Source: Pseudogymnoascus verrucosus
Lineage: Eukaryota
Assembly (NCBI GenBank): GCA_001662655.1
Contig: KV460254.1
Length of the DNA stretch: 64,000 nucleotides
Strand: one strand, 5' to 3'
The notes beneath the pieces are model-generated. The model was not told where the DNA came from, ran no database searches, and saw only the letters and a list, made by a program, of their open reading frames with translations. Below, piece by piece: positions 26,076-46,800 of the stretch (position 1 is the first letter of the stretch; each line of letters begins with the position of its first letter). The translations under genes were made by a program, and so were the position numbers.

Positions 26076-28425
26076 CGCAGTAGGTTTGATATAAAAAAAA
26101 TATGAAAGAACAAGTGCCTTAAACAATACTTTTGACAAAGACACACCACCAAGTGGGGGGGGGGCAGTGCAGGTTGAAGTAAGATCGCAACGAGGTGAGA
26201 CTTTGGAAGGTTGGAGCGATGATGGGTAGAAGAAGGTAGATTTAGAAACGGAGAGGCCAGCTATCGGAGGAGAAGAAGGAGGAGTCTGTGGAGGTGGGAC
26301 GGAGAGGGTTTTGAGTAGGCGCGCGGTCAGAGGGATTGACGGGAGTGGAGATGCTGCATTCGCATGAGGTGCGGGAGCGCAGGGCGGGAGAAGGGATGAG
26401 AAGGGTCGTGAGGTGGGTGTGGGACTCTTTTACTCACGCTATGGGAGAATGGAAATAGAAACAAGGGAGCCCAGATCAGCGAATGCAGGCCTGGCTGTGG
26501 ATGGCGAGGCCTGTGATAGGACCAAGGGACCGCCGTGAAGATATTGGCCACGAGCTAGATGTAGACGCCGGGATGTGAGCGGTTCAAGGTCGCTGGCTGG
26601 GTGTGTGGGCGCAGTTTGAGGCCAACCGCCGGCCACAGGACTCGTCCTTGAGAGTGGTGTGTCGTTCGCGCTCGGGATAGCTTCGGCGCGGGGTTGTTTC
26701 TTCACACAAAGAATGGGACAATGCGCGAGTTCAACGTTCGTATAGCTTGTAGCAGCAACAAGACAGTAAGTAGAGCAGAACAGAGAGACAGAGAGATGGG
26801 GAACGTGAAGCCAAAAGCCTGTGATCAGCACACAGTGCAATGGACAAAGAAAAAAGGTGTCAGATGGCGTCCGGACGGATATACAGCCAGCCATTGGCGC
26901 CCTCCCTCTCCCACCATACATACCACCATGCACACCACCTACATGCATGCACCTCTCCTCCCTTCCCCTAGCCAGCCCAGGGCAAGACCTGTGCGAGTCA
27001 ACATCTCACAACGCACCTACCTGGCAGTCCCTGGTATATTGAATTTGGGGGTTGGGGTTGTCGTGCGGTGCGATGCGCGGATTGGGTTGTGCGGTAGTTG
27101 AGTACCTCCCCCCTCCCCTCCAATGGATCTGTGGCTCTTCGCGCCCATCTCCCCGCCGATCACCTCTCCGTCGCATCGGCGGCGGGAAGAAGCGTGACGG
27201 GGCGGCATGATTGGCCGGGTGTTTAGACAGGGCAGGGGTAAGGCGGTATGTTTGTACGGTGATGGCTGGGGAGGGCTGTGATGGCTTGTGAAGACCGTGC
27301 AGCGCGTCCTTGCGATGGCGCTTCCACCGCAGGGGAGGGGAGGGGTATGATTGGTTCGTGGGGTTGGGGGTGCATACCCGAGTTTGTTAGGGTGCGGCCA
27401 ATTGACGGCGGAAGGAGGGAGACGGAGGGATGAGGCAGGGACGCGGGCGGTTAGGGTGCGGTGTGGTCGGTGTGGTCGCATAGAGGAGAGTGGTGAGTGG
27501 TCGGCAGGAACGAGGGTTTTGCACTCAATTGTGTTGATGGGGATGGCTGCCAAGTACATGTGTATGCACGGAAACTGCTACTCTGCACTCCCACTCTAAG
27601 TATGGAAAGGCGAATATGAACTCGATAGTGCAGAATATAACGAGTTATCCCGTCGAGTGCCTGCATTCATTTCATTCCAGATGCTCCAGTCCAAATACCA
27701 AGAGCGATCGAGCACCATGTGGCATTCCAGTGAGAGGGATCGGAGACATACAGTACAGTACAGTAGTCCGATCACTTCATCACTTCCCAACGACCGAAAA
27801 GATGACAGAACACTCCCTTACTTCCCCCACCCCCCCTCGTCGGTGCTACTCCGCCGAATTGATGCCGTAATCCAGACTTCCCTCATCTGTAGAATGCCAG
27901 AACCCGACTCTCTCACTCCTGGCTATGTAGAAGGAAGGGCTGTCTCACACATCAACTGTATGAGTAAGACAGAAACAATGCTGTACGTACAACGCTGCAG
28001 CAGTATTACTGTACACAGCCACGGCACCTCATCATCCAGAACACACATATTTGATACGATACCCGCTCAGCCCAACACGATCCGGGAGTCTGGTTACACC
28101 CACGGGTCCTGGCTGTGCTGTCGTGCGATGGGATTGTGCGAACAGTTGGGGGGTATGCTGAGTTGTCAGTCAATCGGTCATACTTCAGCTGGGCTGAGGG
28201 GTGGGGGAAGGGGGGATATATTTGCATCAAACCCCGATAAGGGGGGGAAGATTACTATCATGACGTGGCTTGCTGATGAGAACTGAGGAAGGGGGGCGTG
28301 TAGGACAGTGATTGAGAGGTTTGGAGTAGGGTACAGACACTGTTCTCGGTCAGGTGTGTTTATAGAAACTAGAAATGATATTGGGTTCTTGATCACTTTG
28401 TAATTACAGTTCTACGAAGATTCAG

Positions 28426-30550
28426 AAAAATGAAGCTCGAAATATTGAGGATTTGTGTGGTGAGATATATCTGAGCTCGATGCGATTATTCTTGCGCAGA
28501 TTAGCGCTACTAGAGCTAAAAGTGCGCCGATTCCTAGAAAAATGAAGCTATTTACAAAATTAGGTGGTAAGAGATATATATATACAAGCTCGATTCTTGA
28601 TGTAGGCGATGGGGGGGGAGGGGTAATTGTTAGCGGTGTTGGCGATGTCGACGACGACGAAGAAAAATGAAGCTGAAGATATTCACAAATTAGGTGGTGA
28701 GATGTCTAGAGGCTCGATGCAGATGCTAAATTCTGGTTTTGCGCAAATTCAAGTAGACTAGTGCGAAAGTGCGCAGATTCTCAAAAAATGAAGGCATCTA
28801 CAGATTTGATGGGGGCGAGGGTTGGCGGTGTTGGCAGTGTCGACGACGACGATAAAAGTGAAGCTGAAGATATTTACAATTTGTGTGGTGAGATGTCTAG
28901 AGGCTCGATGCAGATGCCAAATTCTGATTTTGCGCAAAATTAAGTAAGCTAGTGTAAAAGTGCGCGGATTTGCAAAAAGTGAAGCTTATATAAGACATAT
29001 ATATCTACTGCGACTTAGGCGGTGATATATATCTAGGAGCTTGATGGGGCCGATGTGGGCGAGAGTGTTGGCGGTGTTTGACGACGACGACGACGACGAC
29101 AAAAGTGAAGCTGAGGATATTTACAATTTGTGTGGTGACAAGTCTAGAAGCTCGATGCAGATATCAAATTCTGATTTTGCGCAGATTAGCACTAGTTGCG
29201 CTAAAAGTGCGCAGATTCAGAAAAAGTGAAGCTATCCAATAATTATATGGCGAAGCTCGGTGCCGCCAGAGTAGGTGGGTAGGTAGGTGCCAACTTGGTG
29301 CCAACTTTTCATTAATAGACAAATTCTAGAAAATGAAGCTCATGATATCTAAGAATTAGGTGGTGATCTATTTAGAAGCTCGATGCGAGTGTCTATCTCT
29401 GATTTTGCGCAAATTCAAGTAGAGTAGTTTAAAAATGCGCAAATTCCTCAAAAAATGAGGGTATCTACAGATTTGATGGTCATATCAAGAAGCTAGATAC
29501 GGGCGGGGCGGGGGGGGGGGGGGGCTAATTTCTAGTTCCTACGCAACGTCAAGGAACTTGAAAGATGAAGCTCATGATATCCAAGAATTAGGTGGTGATC
29601 TATCCAGAAGCTCGATGCAGGTGCCTTTTTCTGATTTTGCGCAAATTCAAGTAGAGTAGTGTAAAAGTGCGCAAATCCCTATAAAAAAATGAAGGCATCT
29701 ACAGATTCTCGATATCAGCAGAGGGGGGCTAATTTATGACAAACTTCTCATATTTACTCAAATCGAGTAGAGCAATTCAAGGGTGATGAAAATGAAGCTT
29801 AGGATATTCAAAAATTAGGTGGTGATCTATCCAGAAGCTCGATGCGGGTGCCCTTTTCTGCTTTTGCGCAAATCCAAGTAAAATAATTTAAAAGTGCGCA
29901 AATTCCCCTAAAAATGAAGCTATCTACAGATTTGGCAGTGGTAGTATATCTAAAGCCTTGATACAGGCAGAGTAGGTGCCAATTTTCTGATTTCTAGGCA
30001 AAATCGTCAAGAAAATTCCAAAGGTGCATAGATTCAGAAAATGAAGCTCAAAATATCCATGAACTACGTGGTGGGCTCTCCAAACCCTCGATGCGCGTAC
30101 ATGCGCGCTGAATCGCGCTACTTATTCTAAAAGTGCGCAAATTCCCCAAAATATGAAGCTATCTACAAATTTAGTAGTGGTATATCTAGAACCTCGATAC
30201 AGGTGGGTGAGTGCCAATTTTCTGATTTCTAGGCAAAATCGGGAAGAATAATTCAAAAGTGCATGAACTCCCAAAAAATGAAGCTCAATATATCGAAGAA
30301 TTGGGTGGTGATGGATCCAAACCCTCGATGCGCGCAATCTGGCGCAAAATCGCGCAGATTATTCTAAATGTGCGCAAATTCCCAGAAATGAAGCGGTGGT
30401 GATGGGGACAGTGATTATTGTAGGAGGTGCGGGTACCAGGAGCGTGTCTGAGGCTTACTGGCTTAGATCCTGAGGCGGAAACAGGTTTCTGCACAGAAAT
30501 GGAGAGATGGGGAATGTGTGCACAAAGCGCCGCTGGCAAAAATGAAGCTA
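28426..30550. repeat. Higher-order tandem repeat array: nine dimers of a conserved 110-124 bp A monomer and a divergent 70-154 bp B monomer
   Basis: TGAAG anchors (TGAGG at 29456) at 28431, 28543, 28668, 28789, 28859, 28980, 29106, 29227, 29334, 29456, 29566, 29690, 29793, 29915, 30042, 30154, 30279, 30389 and 30543; CTCGATGC is present in all nine A units. Confidence 0.93.
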
Positions 30551-30802
30551 GACACTGAGAGGGGTGGTGATGTTTACAGTGACTGTGATCGATTCCTACC
30601 ATCAGAGCCACTCAAATCACATGTCTACCCCCGCCTCACAAACCACCACCACCACGTAATCCACAACAGATGTTGAACCATTTCCATTCATGCTACACTT
30701 AATTATCTAAGTCCAGCAAGGTATCTCTCCCTGCGCTTTTACGCCCCCCCTCTTTCCATCCCCAGACTACCTACCCCTTTTAGGTATCCCATCCACCCAC
30801 AT

Positions 30803-32754
30803 CTAGTGGTGGAACAGGCGGATGCTCTGCTCGACAAACGTAATGCCCAGCTTCTCCGCCGTCTCCATGACGGCGCTGTCGTTCTGGCTTCCAGTCGGTG
30901 CGGCGATGTACGAGACTCCCGAGCGGCTGGCGCGGAAGACGTTGTCGATGAATGGGAACTATCCACTATGATTAGCCAAAAGAACACCTCAAATCATCGT
31001 ACAGCAGAACTCACAAATGCATCACTGGAGCACGCAACGCCCTTAAGCTTGCCCAACCACTCCCTCCTCTCCTCATCGGTAAACTCCTTCGGCACCTCCT
31101 CGAACATCGCCTCGTAGAGCTCCCTCTCGGCGCCCTCCTTGGGCAGCTCCCCGCTCACGAGCAGGTCGATAGCATTGCTCTTGTCAGCGCGCTTGGAGCC
31201 CTTCTTCCACTTGATCTCCAGCACACGGGGGCTGAAACGCAACCACCAGTTGTCCGCCTTGTCACCAGCGAGACGCGTGCAGTGGATGCGACTCTGTTGA
31301 CCGGCACCGAGACCGACGACCTGACCGTTAAGCGCGTAGCACACGGAGTTGGACTGAGTGTACTTGAGCGCGATGGTAGCGACGGTAAGATCACGGAGCG
31401 CGGAGTCCGAGAGCGCAGCGCCCTCCTTGGGGGTGATGATGGAGGAGAAGGAAGCGGGGGAGATGACGACGTCGTTGCGGTGCTGGGCCATGGTGATACC
31501 GTAGACGGTGCGGGTCTCTTGGGGGTTAGGCACGTACTCCGGGTCGATCTGGAGGACGAGGTAGCGGCCGCCCTTCTTCTTCTTGAGGATCTCGAGGGCG
31601 GCGTCCTCGTAGCCTGGGGCAATCACTCCGTCGGAAACTTCGCGGGAGATGATCTTGGCGGTGGGAACGTCGACGATGTCGCTGAGGGCGATCATGTCGC
31701 CGAAGGAGGACATGCGGTCGGCGCCGCGGGCGCGGGCGTAGGCTTGGGCGAGGGGAGAGTTCTCGAGGCCCTCAATGTCGTCGACGAAGTAGACCTTGCG
31801 CTCCTCGGCAGTGAGGGGGACGGCGATGGCGGCTCCGGCGGGGGAGACGTGCTTGAAGCTTGCGGCGGCGGGGTGGCCAAGAGCCTCCTTGAGCTCCTTG
31901 ACCAGAGGCCAGGCGTTCAGGGCATCAAGGAGGTTGATGTAACCTGGGGCGCCGCAGAGGACCTTGAATGGGAGCTGGCCCTCCTTGACGTATGCAGCGG
32001 CGGGCTTCTGGTGGGGGTTGGCGCCGTAGCGGAGAGCGAGCTGCTGGACGCCGTTGGCGGCGTATTGCTTGCGGAAGAAGTCCGATATCGCAGCGTCATA
32101 GTCGGCAGTGTGGCCGAATGCCTTGAGGGCGTACATCTGTCTGCTCTGCTCCTTGATCTCGCCCTTCTCGAGCTCCTCGAGGAAGGAGGGGTAGTCAGAT
32201 GGGTCGCTGAGGATGGTGACGCGGGTGTGGTTCTTGGCGGCGGCGCGGATGAGAGTTACACCTCCGATATCGATCTCCTCGACGGCTTCGGGGACGGTGA
32301 CGTTGATCTTGGCGACGGTGTCCTTGAAGGGGTAGAGGTTGCAGATGACATAGTCGACCTTGTTGATGTTCTGGTCGGCAAGGTCCTTCTCGTCGGAGGC
32401 AAGGTCGCGAGCCAGGATACCGGCGTGGACAGCTGGGTGCAGCGTCTTGACGCGGCCAGCGAGCATCTCGGGTGCGTGCGTAATGGCCGACACATCTCTG
32501 TTACCATTTTGTCAGCTTGGGTTGTCTCATAGACGGCGGGGGAAGAGCTCTTACTCAACTGCGAAGCCAGACTCTCTGATCATCTTGGCCGTTCCGCCAG
32601 ACGCCAGAAGACGAACATTCTGCTTGATCAATCCCTTGGCCAAGTCAAGAAGACCCGTCTTGTCGTAGACGGAGATAATCGCTATGTCTTTACGTCAGTA
32701 TTATAGAGCAACGGCAATATATAACTTTCGATCAACTTTACCTGTCTTTCCCAT
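30803..32754 (-). CDS. ADE17: Bifunctional AICAR transformylase/IMP cyclohydrolase (PurH), 4 exons (32742-32754, 32555-32681, 31015-32497, 30803-30958), ~592 aa
   Basis: [59 protein letters not shown] and C-terminal RLFHH motifs. Confidence 0.96.
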
Positions 32755-33056: not shown

Positions 33057-33189
33057 GTTCGGTAGCGGCATCGGACCTTGCCGAGCGAGCAAGCGGGAGG
33101 CAGTATAAATCTTTTTTCTCGCGCGATTCCTTTTCCCTTTTCTTTTCTTTCCATAATAAAACAACGCAAAACCAACTTTCTCATTAAAA

Positions 33190-33347
33190 GCGTTCCTGTG
33201 AGAAGCCCGCTGTCCTCGTGGCAGTGTGTGGCTCTATGAAACATGGAAATCGTCAAGTAGAAAGGAGAATTGACATCGTTCGCGGTCGGTCCTGGGTGAG
33301 GCGCTTCGCAAACTGTGCGGAGGGTCTCAAAGACTGGCTGTACATAC
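33190..33347 (+). ncRNA. Candidate box H/ACA snoRNA
   Basis: Two hairpins with internal loops; the 3' hairpin is immediately followed by ACA (33342-33344); ANANNA-type AAAGGA at 33261; upstream TATAAA (33104) and pyrimidine tract; no ORF. Confidence 0.6.
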
Positions 33348-43831: not shown

Positions 43832-46800
43832 ATGTCGGCTGGGGATTCCAATGGCGCCGCGAACGAGGTGTTCGAGGAGAGCGGCGATGAGAGGCAGTCC
43901 CAGTCCATCCAGCACATCCGCGCCAACTCGAGTATCATGCAGTTGAAGAAGATTCTGGGTAAGCCTTTTTTTTCTGGATTTGCGGCGCCGACGAGGTGTG
44001 TGCGAGTGGAAAATGAGCTTTGCTGACTTGAGTTCTCACTTCTAGTTGCCAACCGTGGAGAAATTCGTAAGTTGCCCGCCCCCAGATTCACATGTGCAAT
44101 GGGGACCGATTAGCTGACATCTGATATAGCCATTCGTGTATGAACCACTCCACGTCCTGCTAAAATCCCCAATGGTATACTTACAAGCGATTCTTTGTAC
44201 AGATTTTCAGAACTGTGAGTCAACTCCCCCAAATACGATGTTCCGGCGGTGTGGAAGGGATTTTTGCTGACAGTTCACCCCGCCCCGCAGGCTCACGAGC
44301 TTTCCCTACAAACAGTCGCCGTCTTCAGTTATGAGGACAGACTCAGCATGCACAGGCAGAAGGCCGATGAGGCCTATGTCATCGGCAAGCGTGGCCAGTA
44401 CACGCCTGTCGGCGCATACCTGGCCGGAGACGAGATCATCAAGATCGCCTTACAACACGGCGTCAACATGATCCATCCAGGCTACGGTTTCCTTTCCGAG
44501 AATGCCGAGTTTGCTCGCAATGTTGAGAAGGCCGGCCTTGTCGTAAGCAGTTCTGCCCCATTTAGCTGCTCTCACCCGCTGACGTGTGAAATTAGTTCGT
44601 CGGCCCATCCCCCGAGGTCATCGACGCCCTCGGAGACAAGGTCTCTGCCAGGACCCTCGCCATCAAGGCCGGCGTCCCGGTCGTCCCCGGTACCGAGGGC
44701 GCCGTCGAGAAGTTCGAGGACGTCAAGAAGTTCACCGACGAATACGGCTTCCCCATCATCATCAAGGCCGCCTACGGTGGCGGTGGCCGCGGCATGCGTG
44801 TCGTTCGCGAGCAGGCGTCGCTGAAGGAGTCCTTCGACCGCGCTACCTCCGAGGCCAAGTCCGCTTTCGGTAACGGCACCGTCTTCGTCGAGCGCTTCCT
44901 CGATAAGCCTAAGCACATTGAGGTCCAGCTGCTGGGTGATAACCACGGTAACATCGTGCACTTGTACGAGCGCGACTGCTCGGTGCAGCGCAGACATCAG
45001 AAGGTCGTCGAGCTGGCCCCGGCCAAGGATCTCCCCCAGGACGTCCGCGAGGCCCTCCTCAACGACGCTGTCAAGCTCGCTAAGTCGGTTAACTACCGCA
45101 ACGCTGGTACGGCTGAGTTCTTGGTCGATCAGCAGAACAGATACTACTTCATCGAGATCAACCCCAGAATCCAGGTCGAGCACACCATCACTGAGGAGAT
45201 TACCGGTATCGATATCATTGCTGCCCAGATCCAGATTGCTGCCGGTGCTACGCTGCCACAGCTTGGTCTGACTCAGGACCGCATCTCGACTAGGGGTTTC
45301 GCTATTCAGTGCAGAATCACTACTGAGGATCCCTCGAAACAGTTCTCGCCGGATACCGGAAAGATTGAGGTTTACCGTTCCGCTGGTGGTAACGGTGTCC
45401 GCCTTGATGGTGGTAATGGCTTCGCCGGCGCGGTTATTACTCGTAAGTATTTTATTTCTTTTTTTCCTGTTTCCATGCCCGTTTTGAGTTGCTATTTTTG
45501 GGTTTATCGAGTTGAGTTATTCTTCTTGAGTTACTCAACTTGAATCGCTCTTCTAGAGTTTCTCGGTTTGGGTTACTCATCTTGAGTTGCTCATTTTGAG
45601 TTACTTAAGTTGAGTTTCTCATTTTAAGTTTGTCATTTTAAGTTGCTCAGCTTGAGTTCCTCAGCTTGGTTGCTCGGCTTGGGTTTCTCGAGTTGAGTTT
45701 CTTAAGTTAAGTTACTCATCTTGAGTTACTCCTCTCGAGTGATTCTTTAGGTGTCGCTCTACTTAGGTCGCTCTTCTTGAGCTTCTCTCGTTAAGTCACC
45801 CTTCTTGGGTTGCTCTTGTCGAGTTACTCTGATGGAGTCATCGTCATCACGTGATTGTCATGTGATTTTATTTATTTTGTACTCTTCGACTCATTCTTTT
45901 TTCATTCTTCTACCCTTCTATGTTCATTTACTGACACCTCACGAGCTCACTACGATTCTATGCTTGTTAAGTGTACATGCCATGGCTCGACCTACGAGAT
46001 TGTCCGCCGCAAGATGTTGAGAGCTCTGGTTGAGTTCCGCATCCGCGGCGTCAAGACCAACATCCCCTTCCTCGCCTCCCTACTCACCCACCCCACCTTC
46101 ATCGACGGCAACTGCTGGACGACCTTCATCGACGACACTCCCGAGCTCTTCGACCTCGTCGGCTCGCAGAACCGCGCCCAGAAGCTTCTCGCCTACCTCG
46201 GCGACATCGCCGTCAACGGCTCCAGCATCAAGGGCCAAGTCGGCGAGCCCAAGTTCAAGGGCGAGATCATCATGCCCGAGCTCTTCGACGACGCAGGCGA
46301 GAAGATCGACGTCACCGAGCCCAGCACCCAGGGCTGGCGCCAGATCCTCATCGAGCAGGGCCCCGAGGCCTTCGCCAAGTCCGTCCGCGCAAACAAGGGG
46401 TGTCTCCTCATGGATACCACCTGGCGTGACGCCCACCAGTCTCTCCTTGCCACCCGTGTCCGCACTGTTGATCTGCTCAACATCGCCAAGGAGACCAGCC
46501 ACGCATATGCTAACCTGTACTCGCTTGAGTGCTGGGGTGGTGCGACCTTTGATGTCGCTATGCGCTTCCTCTATGAGGATCCTTGGGACAGACTTCGCAA
46601 GATGAGGAAGCTCATCCCCAACATCCCCTTCCAGATGTTGCTGCGTGGTGCTAACGGCGTGGCGTACTCGTCGCTGCCGGATAATGCTATCTACCACTTT
46701 GTGGAGCAGGCGAAGAAGAATGGTGTTGATATCTTCCGTGTTTTCGATGCGTTGAACGATATTGATCAGCTTGAGCTTGGTATTAAGGCTGTTCACAAGG

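Follow-up and report, generated by a model that had tools for sequence, protein, structure and literature searches.

We identified in the window (the whole 64,000-nucleotide stretch of Pseudogymnoascus verrucosus DNA that was analysed) a tandem array that belongs to a dispersed repeat family, which is low-copy, apparently undescribed and probably transposon-derived. BLAST searches of the organism's own genome placed the monomer of the array at six further loci, each on a further contig of its own (C1, C2, C12, C13, C34 and C73), in both orientations. The original prediction had not seen these loci, nor an arm that extends ~440 bp leftward of the array; membership of a dispersed family, in place of a locus-specific array, indicates a mobile origin. 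The seven loci, counted from BLAST and pattern searches, are a lower bound; further DNA queries and pattern searches of the genome yielded no extra monomer locus, and a profile search found neither monomer nor arm in the two-mismatch pattern hits or in five non-monomer hits. Our leading explanation, which we hold tentatively, is that the array is what remains, now immobile, of a non-autonomous DNA transposon; its modules would once have served as transposase-binding sites, and unequal crossover would now resize the array. With its arm, the dispersed element occupies about positions 27986-30587 at this locus.

Cutting the array at the anchor reproduced the nine A monomers at the lengths first reported, alternating with B segments of 70-154 bp; the A9/B9 boundary was placed by hand at 30385. 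The parts of the element are listed below by window position.

27986..28425, no strand assigned: shared unique arm, with nested left ends (C13 at ~27986, C12 at ~28046, C1 at 28265, C73 at 28279)
28094..28124, no strand assigned: conserved arm block, 30 of 31 bases in common with C12, with a 20-column run identical in three copies
28427..28538, plus strand: A1, 112 bp, short (~111-bp) type, nearest to the dispersed copies
28539..28663, plus strand: B1, 125 bp, monomer 5' half and a foreign tail with a GAC run
28664..28784, plus strand: A2, 121 bp, long type (+10 bp)
28785..28854, plus strand: B2, 70 bp, deleted relative of B1 and B3 (B-to-B scores 58 and 56)
28855..28975, plus strand: A3, 121 bp, long type
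28976..29101, plus strand: B3, 126 bp, B1 family
29102..29222, plus strand: A4, 121 bp, recombinant with an A3-like 5' part (69/75) and an A1-like 3' part (38/46)
29223..29329, plus strand: B4, 107 bp, strongly decayed (score reached by 8/200 shuffles)
29330..29451, plus strand: A5, 122 bp, long type, at least 19 sites differing from the relatives' allele
29452..29561, plus strand: B5, 110 bp
29562..29685, plus strand: A6, 124 bp, long type
29686..29788, plus strand: B6, 103 bp, skipped in the contigs of three relatives and outside the pieces listed for the fourth
29789..29910, plus strand: A7, 122 bp, long type
29911..30037, plus strand: B7, 127 bp, decayed monomer of full length
30038..30149, plus strand: A8, 112 bp, short type, subtype in common with the C34 copy
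30150..30274, plus strand: B8, 125 bp, decayed full-length monomer, sister of B7
30275..30384, plus strand: A9, 110 bp, short type, 83% identity to the C34 monomer
30385..30538, plus strand: B9, 154 bp, anchor and unrelated sequence
30539..30587, plus strand: last anchor and a 40-bp tail, 38 of 40 tail bases the same as at a site on contig C17

A profile of the A monomers matches all nine at E-values of 1e-25 to 1e-35, the same nine having built the profile, and has no match elsewhere in the 64-kb window outside the array. The described contrast between a conserved A and a decayed B holds in direction, with mean pairwise identities of 72% (63-89) and 58% (40-84), respectively, but A is only moderately conserved. 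Aligned without the anchor, B7 and B8 still cover nearly the whole of A, as had been claimed, and B1, B3 and B5 cover its 5' half, all with scores reached by none of 200 shuffles. The alignment of B6 to A is weak (1/200), as is that of B4, and those of B2 and B9 were not above chance in 200 shuffles; in a contig of relative X4, 139 different letters replace most of B9. These anchor-free alignments back the proposal of a dimeric origin from one ~120-bp ancestor. The B segments fall into several lineages (B1-B3; B5, B7 and B8; the rest each alone), which implies that the array was made in several rounds and not by simply copying one dimer. The sequence supports a dimeric higher-order tandem repeat that descends from one ancestor of ~110-120 bp and has turned over in register. 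An assembly artefact is an unlikely source, because the units are 62-89% alike and 0.94 of sampled words occur in one public run (which may be the source of the assembly).

The six other loci hold nine additional full monomers along with short and decayed units. The full monomers score far over threshold (E 1e-22 to 1e-30), there is no tail of weak copies, and monomers from different loci are at most 83% alike. Each monomer locus retains an intact module, and the genome searches returned no arm-only relic; at C2 and C34 the solo copy is a little longer than one unit. Four of the six loci share the arm, with alignment scores of 272 (C13), 200 (C12), 118 (C1) and 146 (C73) against shuffle maxima of 42-51, and the 20-column identical run in the arm was reached in 7 of 10000 permutations. 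No right flank is shared: a single right-tail pair out of 21 exceeded its shuffle maximum (C1-C13, 38 against 33), and it lay in leftover monomer sequence. Branches among the loci are star-like, with identities of 65-77% in the arm and 73-79% in the first monomers. In the tree, A1 clusters with five dispersed loci, and A8, A9 and C34 group together (support 94/94). Because array subtypes have dispersed relatives, they must already have been present at the dispersal of at least one copy; together with the C17 tail, these relationships would fit pieces of one larger mobile source. The repeat was not described in the literature searched, and an Rfam E-value scan, a check raised by the original prediction, gave two chance hits and no family match; supplements, subscription papers and Repbase/Dfam may hold the family. 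Viral contigs, plasmids and phages contained no match, and a metagenome pattern scan gave three hits, all of them chance matches within bacterial genes.

All copies of the monomer are intergenic, between unrelated genes. The setting described for the array is correct for the end of the ADE17-type gene (AICARFT/IMPCHase), ~250 bp to the right; the HAM-8-like gene, a MARVEL-domain homologue, is the neighbour on the other (left) side. A nearest named homologue from Pseudogymnoascus destructans (94%) puts the host in that genus or close to it, and ORFs near the array had no Pfam match. Since the neighbours at the other copies are unrelated genes, nothing ties the array to ADE17 or HAM-8. No transposase family was found among 101 ORFs scanned within ~5 kb of the six other monomer loci and the C17 site. 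Several features of these surroundings are recorded as separate observations. A HET-domain gene (L070:7533-9788) lies ~2.4 kb from the C13 copy. The Rfam small RNA Afu_182 matches at 33155-33345 on the plus strand (111.9 bits), upstream of the ADE17-type gene and on the opposite strand. The 10-mer TGAGGCGGAA occurs in B9 (30471, plus strand), once more in the window (9449, minus strand) and beside the C34 monomer (L006), and may represent a widespread promoter motif. A 14-bp near-palindromic unit is repeated about 16 times at 45512-45740, apparently in an intron, between two pyruvate carboxylase coding stretches; contigs C2, C4 and C12 begin, as judged by eye, with similar short palindromic repeats.

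Four of the 13 public runs listed served as relatives, and divergence was taken from the listed pieces only; the small shares of the other nine are not counted as evidence. None of the listed runs is of RNA, which bears neither way on expression. Presence in close relatives was another check that accompanied the original prediction, and all four carry the array at the same locus, three of them with fewer units; no empty insertion site appeared among the joints listed for the four. Loose ends of the relatives' contigs match, by eye, the flanks of C1, C2, C13, C17 and C73, which indicates that these loci predate the species split. Three runs contain five deletions, each bridged by a single contig and each a loss of one or two A+B units. 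With inserted letters counted, every one of the five joins A to A in register, and the array tolerates the loss of one to four of its nine units. The A4 mosaic and these in-register deletions demonstrate unequal crossover between A units, which can alone keep A more uniform than B. Between species, the listed pieces diverge by 6.6-8.6% in the array, 0.03-3.4% in the left flank and ~6% in the right flank (two runs); the array is not slower than its flanks. Across strains A is not plainly slower than B among the 40 listed of 502 variants. In run X2, the 27 listed of 30 differences in 29222-29653 comprise 19 in A5, seven in B5 and one in B4.

The organism of run X2 (organism B) presents features of its own. 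Left of the array, 1 of its 3003 bases differs from the window; inside the array (28574-29653) the difference is 6.6%, and its alleles there are common to three more distant relatives. The middle of the window's array looks like a divergent haplotype, whether from introgression, old polymorphism or conversion. A 257-bp contig of the same run goes back 109 bp over A1 (28425-28533) with few differences, which suggests a direct A1-A1 duplication without B. Separately, for runs X4 and X6 the right flank at 30555-31500, ADE17 coding DNA included, shows a divergence of ~6%, which is two to three times that of the left non-coding flank.

By sequence comparison, the motif constraint on the A module is real. 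Among 18 monomers, 32 of 111 columns are invariant against 9.4 +/- 2.9 expected under uniform rates (0/300 simulations), and the nine window monomers taken separately have 45 against 29.2 +/- 4.9 (0/300). Since recombination can fake an invariance signal, the test was redone with one monomer per locus and returned 51 invariant columns against 36.9 +/- 4.8 (0/500). The columns that do not vary among five dispersed copies stay fixed in A2-A9 as well (23 of 10000 base-stratified permutations); the overlap persists when the anchor is left out (42/10000) and is weaker for A2-A7 only, again without the anchor (209/10000). The fixed motifs are the anchor, ATAT, GTGGTG, CTCGATG and two GCGC sites. CTCGATG stands at position 50 in 17 of the 18 monomers, GCGC sites lie at or near positions 68, 78, 98 and 108, and the main two are 30-31 bp apart in 16 of 18. 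The two larger monomer insertions measure +10 and +9 bp; as a description only, the periodicity of GC steps is strongest at 10 bp and that of A/T steps at 9.5-10 bp. The evenly spaced motifs look as if a protein binds, or once bound, the 110-base unit, and fixed short motifs at helical spacing would be the trace of a multi-site protein-DNA contact. The original argument for a functional, for example protein-binding, A fits the constraint seen in the three tests; the asymmetry between A and B is by itself weak ground for it, because the gains and losses from A to A and the recombinant A4 reveal that recombination can homogenise A without any function.

Scattered copies with nested truncations, built of a unique arm and tandem modules, are what a non-autonomous DNA transposon looks like, and for this reason we favour a relic. 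Pseudogymnoascus would have carried a low-copy mobile element, old and non-coding, of which the window array is the longest remaining copy; the element would have been composed of the unique arm and tandem modules of ~110 bp and most like Helitron or Helentron derivatives with tandem repeats beside one conserved end. Each module would have offered binding sites on one helix face to a mobilising protein, whose binding may have kept the motifs fixed during the active life of the family. Every other module would then have lost its motifs, becoming B, before the A+B pair was re-amplified. The array would now be immobile, vary in length via unequal crossover between A units and serve no host function today.

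Known systems resemble the element in part. TIR DNA transposons (CACTA, hAT, MULE and foldback solo arms) have short fixed motifs repeated near one end, and solo arms persist as relics. Our short fixed motifs likewise recur beside one end, but no locus has an inverted partner arm or a target duplication, and the modules, at ~110 bp, are longer than the usual subterminal motifs of these transposons. Alpha satellite, with A/B monomers and the CENP-B box, is a dimeric higher-order satellite having a conserved protein-binding box. Our array is similar in its alternating monomer types from one ancestor, its fixed motifs in one type and its in-register unequal crossover; unlike alpha satellite, it is 2 kb long, has nine units, lies in gene-dense DNA and is dispersed at low copy. 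For Helitrons and Helentrons we drew on five reports (PMC4067079, PMC11417382, PMC12628747, PMC5148889, PMC5751038). There, a Helitron end with tandem repeats on one side only is described (PMC12628747), as are fungal Helitrons with repeated termini (PMC5148889). Our element is like the Helentron-derived DINE-1/HINE and the Helitron-linked 'intermediate' arrays, as presented there, in being non-coding and dispersed with a conserved arm and variable tandem repeats, and like the 'intermediate' arrays in having element sequence on one side only (PMC4067079, PMC12628747). It departs from the DINE-1/HINE of those reports, where the examples are animal, in that we found neither subterminal inverted repeats nor a 3' hairpin or TT insertion site and that it has seven copies rather than hundreds, with no partner element (PMC4067079, PMC12628747). 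The terminal 31-85 bp of FoHeli, a Helitron2 of Fusarium oxysporum, are described as repeated at several loci, and FoHeli1/2 end in ATTTT (PMC5148889). Our family is also fungal and most of its modules end in ATTTT on the minus strand; as presented in that source, FoHeli differs from our element, in which we found no asymmetric inverted repeat, terminal hairpin, RepHel gene or shared body beyond the repeats (PMC5148889). The likeness amounts to five bases and is only a lead.

The termini that characterise Helitron1, Helitron2/Helentron, TIR elements and SINEs were not found, and we therefore assign the element to no transposon superfamily. Helitron1 would have a 5' TC, a 3' hairpin with CTRR and an A/T insertion site, and by eye there is no CTRR at the nested left ends; the minus strand of the 40-mer shared by C17 and the right tail ends in CTAG, but no T follows and, by eye, the hairpin is ~28 bp off. 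The 11-17 bp asymmetric or subterminal inverted repeats found at both ends of Helitron2, Helentron and HINE are missing, since exact inverted matches between the end regions stay below 9 bp at the window locus and below 8 bp at C13, and the single 8-bp match at C12 falls outside the homologous part. The TIR transposon and MITE tests likewise yielded no terminal inverted pair, target duplication or shared right end. A Helitron_like_N (PF14214) profile had zero matches in the genome, where the controls were also blank and the assembly may be incomplete. A SINE head derived from 5S rRNA was rejected when none of the seven left flanks, in either orientation, aligned to the host 5S gene better than shuffles did, and a tRNA-derived head when no tRNA gene was found. 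Eroded ends may explain the absent termini. The array is not a product of RIP, which would give a high TpA/ApT, a low CpA index and C-to-T changes biased to CpA (here TpA/ApT 0.74, CpA index 1.59; C-to-T changes 20/214 at CpA against 40/250 at CpT), and RIP-like DNA exists elsewhere in the genome. As a separate observation, the genome has 43 dispersed 5S rRNA matches above the Rfam cut-off and four weaker ones, with close pairs on C27 and C31.

A second explanation, less probable in our view than the relic, is that the module, whatever its origin, is still under purifying selection at each locus, where a putative host protein or complex would bind. The module might then be a chromatin, replication or segregation element, of which one intact unit would be enough and extras tolerated. 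The excess of invariant columns, also with one monomer per locus, argues for it, as do the columns fixed alike in the dispersed copies and A2-A9, the positions of CTCGATG and the GCGC sites, the +10 and +9 bp insertions, the A-to-A spacing (191-247 bp in the window array, ~250 bp at C12 and C73) and the scarcity of gap openings in monomers, at 9 per 248 mismatches compared with 31 per 308 in the arm. At ~48 of the 111 columns there are 0.02 changes per monomer, against a median of 0.13 on terminal branches, which implies that constraint covered most of each copy's history. On the relic reading, this constraint would need to have persisted until shortly before the species split and yet have left unrecognisable ends, a timing difficulty that keeps selection by the host a close rival. 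The failure to find termini or a nearby transposase, the intact module retained at each monomer locus and the lack of any arm-only relic in the searches likewise count against the relic. On the other side, copy number varies freely at this locus, the array evolves no slower than its flanks, and the neighbouring genes of the copies have no common function or orientation. When five copies of each were compared, invariant columns were not significantly in excess in either the arm or the monomer (the value is reached in 54 and 49 of 300 simulations, respectively). The out-of-sample test on the relatives' A5 allele was not significant either, with one of eight likely derived changes at an invariant column (p 0.28); the p of 0.024 over all 17 aligned sites counts changes on the window's own lineage, rises to 0.28 after their removal and is not used as support.

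We consider it unlikely that the family is a neutral minisatellite, spread by ectopic copying or excised circles, with motifs that reflect recombination, differences in mutation rate and the ascertainment of copies. Recombination inflates apparent rate variation on a tree, and it has occurred here, as the A4 mosaic and the in-register deletions attest; the copies were found through their similarity to the window, and the solo copies at C2 and C34 slightly exceed one unit. The signal persists, however, with one monomer per unlinked locus and base stratification, the full monomers come without a weak-copy tail, and a unique arm accompanies the repeat. It is improbable that the monomers form a cluster of tandem small ncRNA genes with paralogues at six loci, another function originally put forward. 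Their folding is slightly more stable than that of shuffles (mean z -0.7 on the plus strand and -1.2 on the minus) and a 7-bp helix is predicted in all of them, but the helix pairs two self-complementary GCGC sites, none of its seven pairs has changed on both sides, and there is no Rfam match, tRNA gene or similarity to the host 5S rRNA. The arm folds no better (z-scores -0.8 to +0.7), and its covariation terms are unfavourable.

More doubtful still is a reading in which this filamentous ascomycete uses the seven loci as short chromosome elements defined by sequence, at the extreme as small centromeres; one phased module of ~110 bp, perhaps from a domesticated transposon, would then be the functional seed and this locus an expanded one. 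Each contig with a copy has one locus with an intact module, the 10-bp phasing is rigid, and the array is present in relatives; against this, random loci fall as seven loci on seven contigs 66-74% of the time, and ordinary regional centromeres can lie in the AT-rich, RIP-like DNA present at several contig ends. A single telomere was assembled, which makes the telomere count uninformative on chromosome number; as to a subtelomeric position, the telomere repeat was absent at the five right-hand contig ends examined. The starts of C1, C10 and C11 (L115, L124 and L125) are AT-rich with RIP-like indices (TpA/ApT 1.5-2.0), and that of C10 holds the sole assembled telomere. A decayed protein-coding repeat gene is the most improbable explanation: within columns 12-49 conservation is somewhat stronger at every third position (0.18 vs 0.34 and 0.33), but all six frames contain stops, the best synonymous fraction (0.33) is under the shuffled best (0.35) and four-fold degenerate positions within motifs are invariant, in agreement with the original description of the array as non-coding.

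In practical terms, the length polymorphism of the array can be used as a strain marker. If the array is a relic, it would represent a fungal repeat family not yet classified and a small, clean example of how a tandem array arose from a mobile element and turned over in register, of interest mainly to specialists in transposons and satellites. If the module is still selected, it would be an undescribed cis-element at only seven sites for which the motif map is ready-made, and would offer a cheap test of short sequence-defined chromosomal elements in a filamentous fungus.
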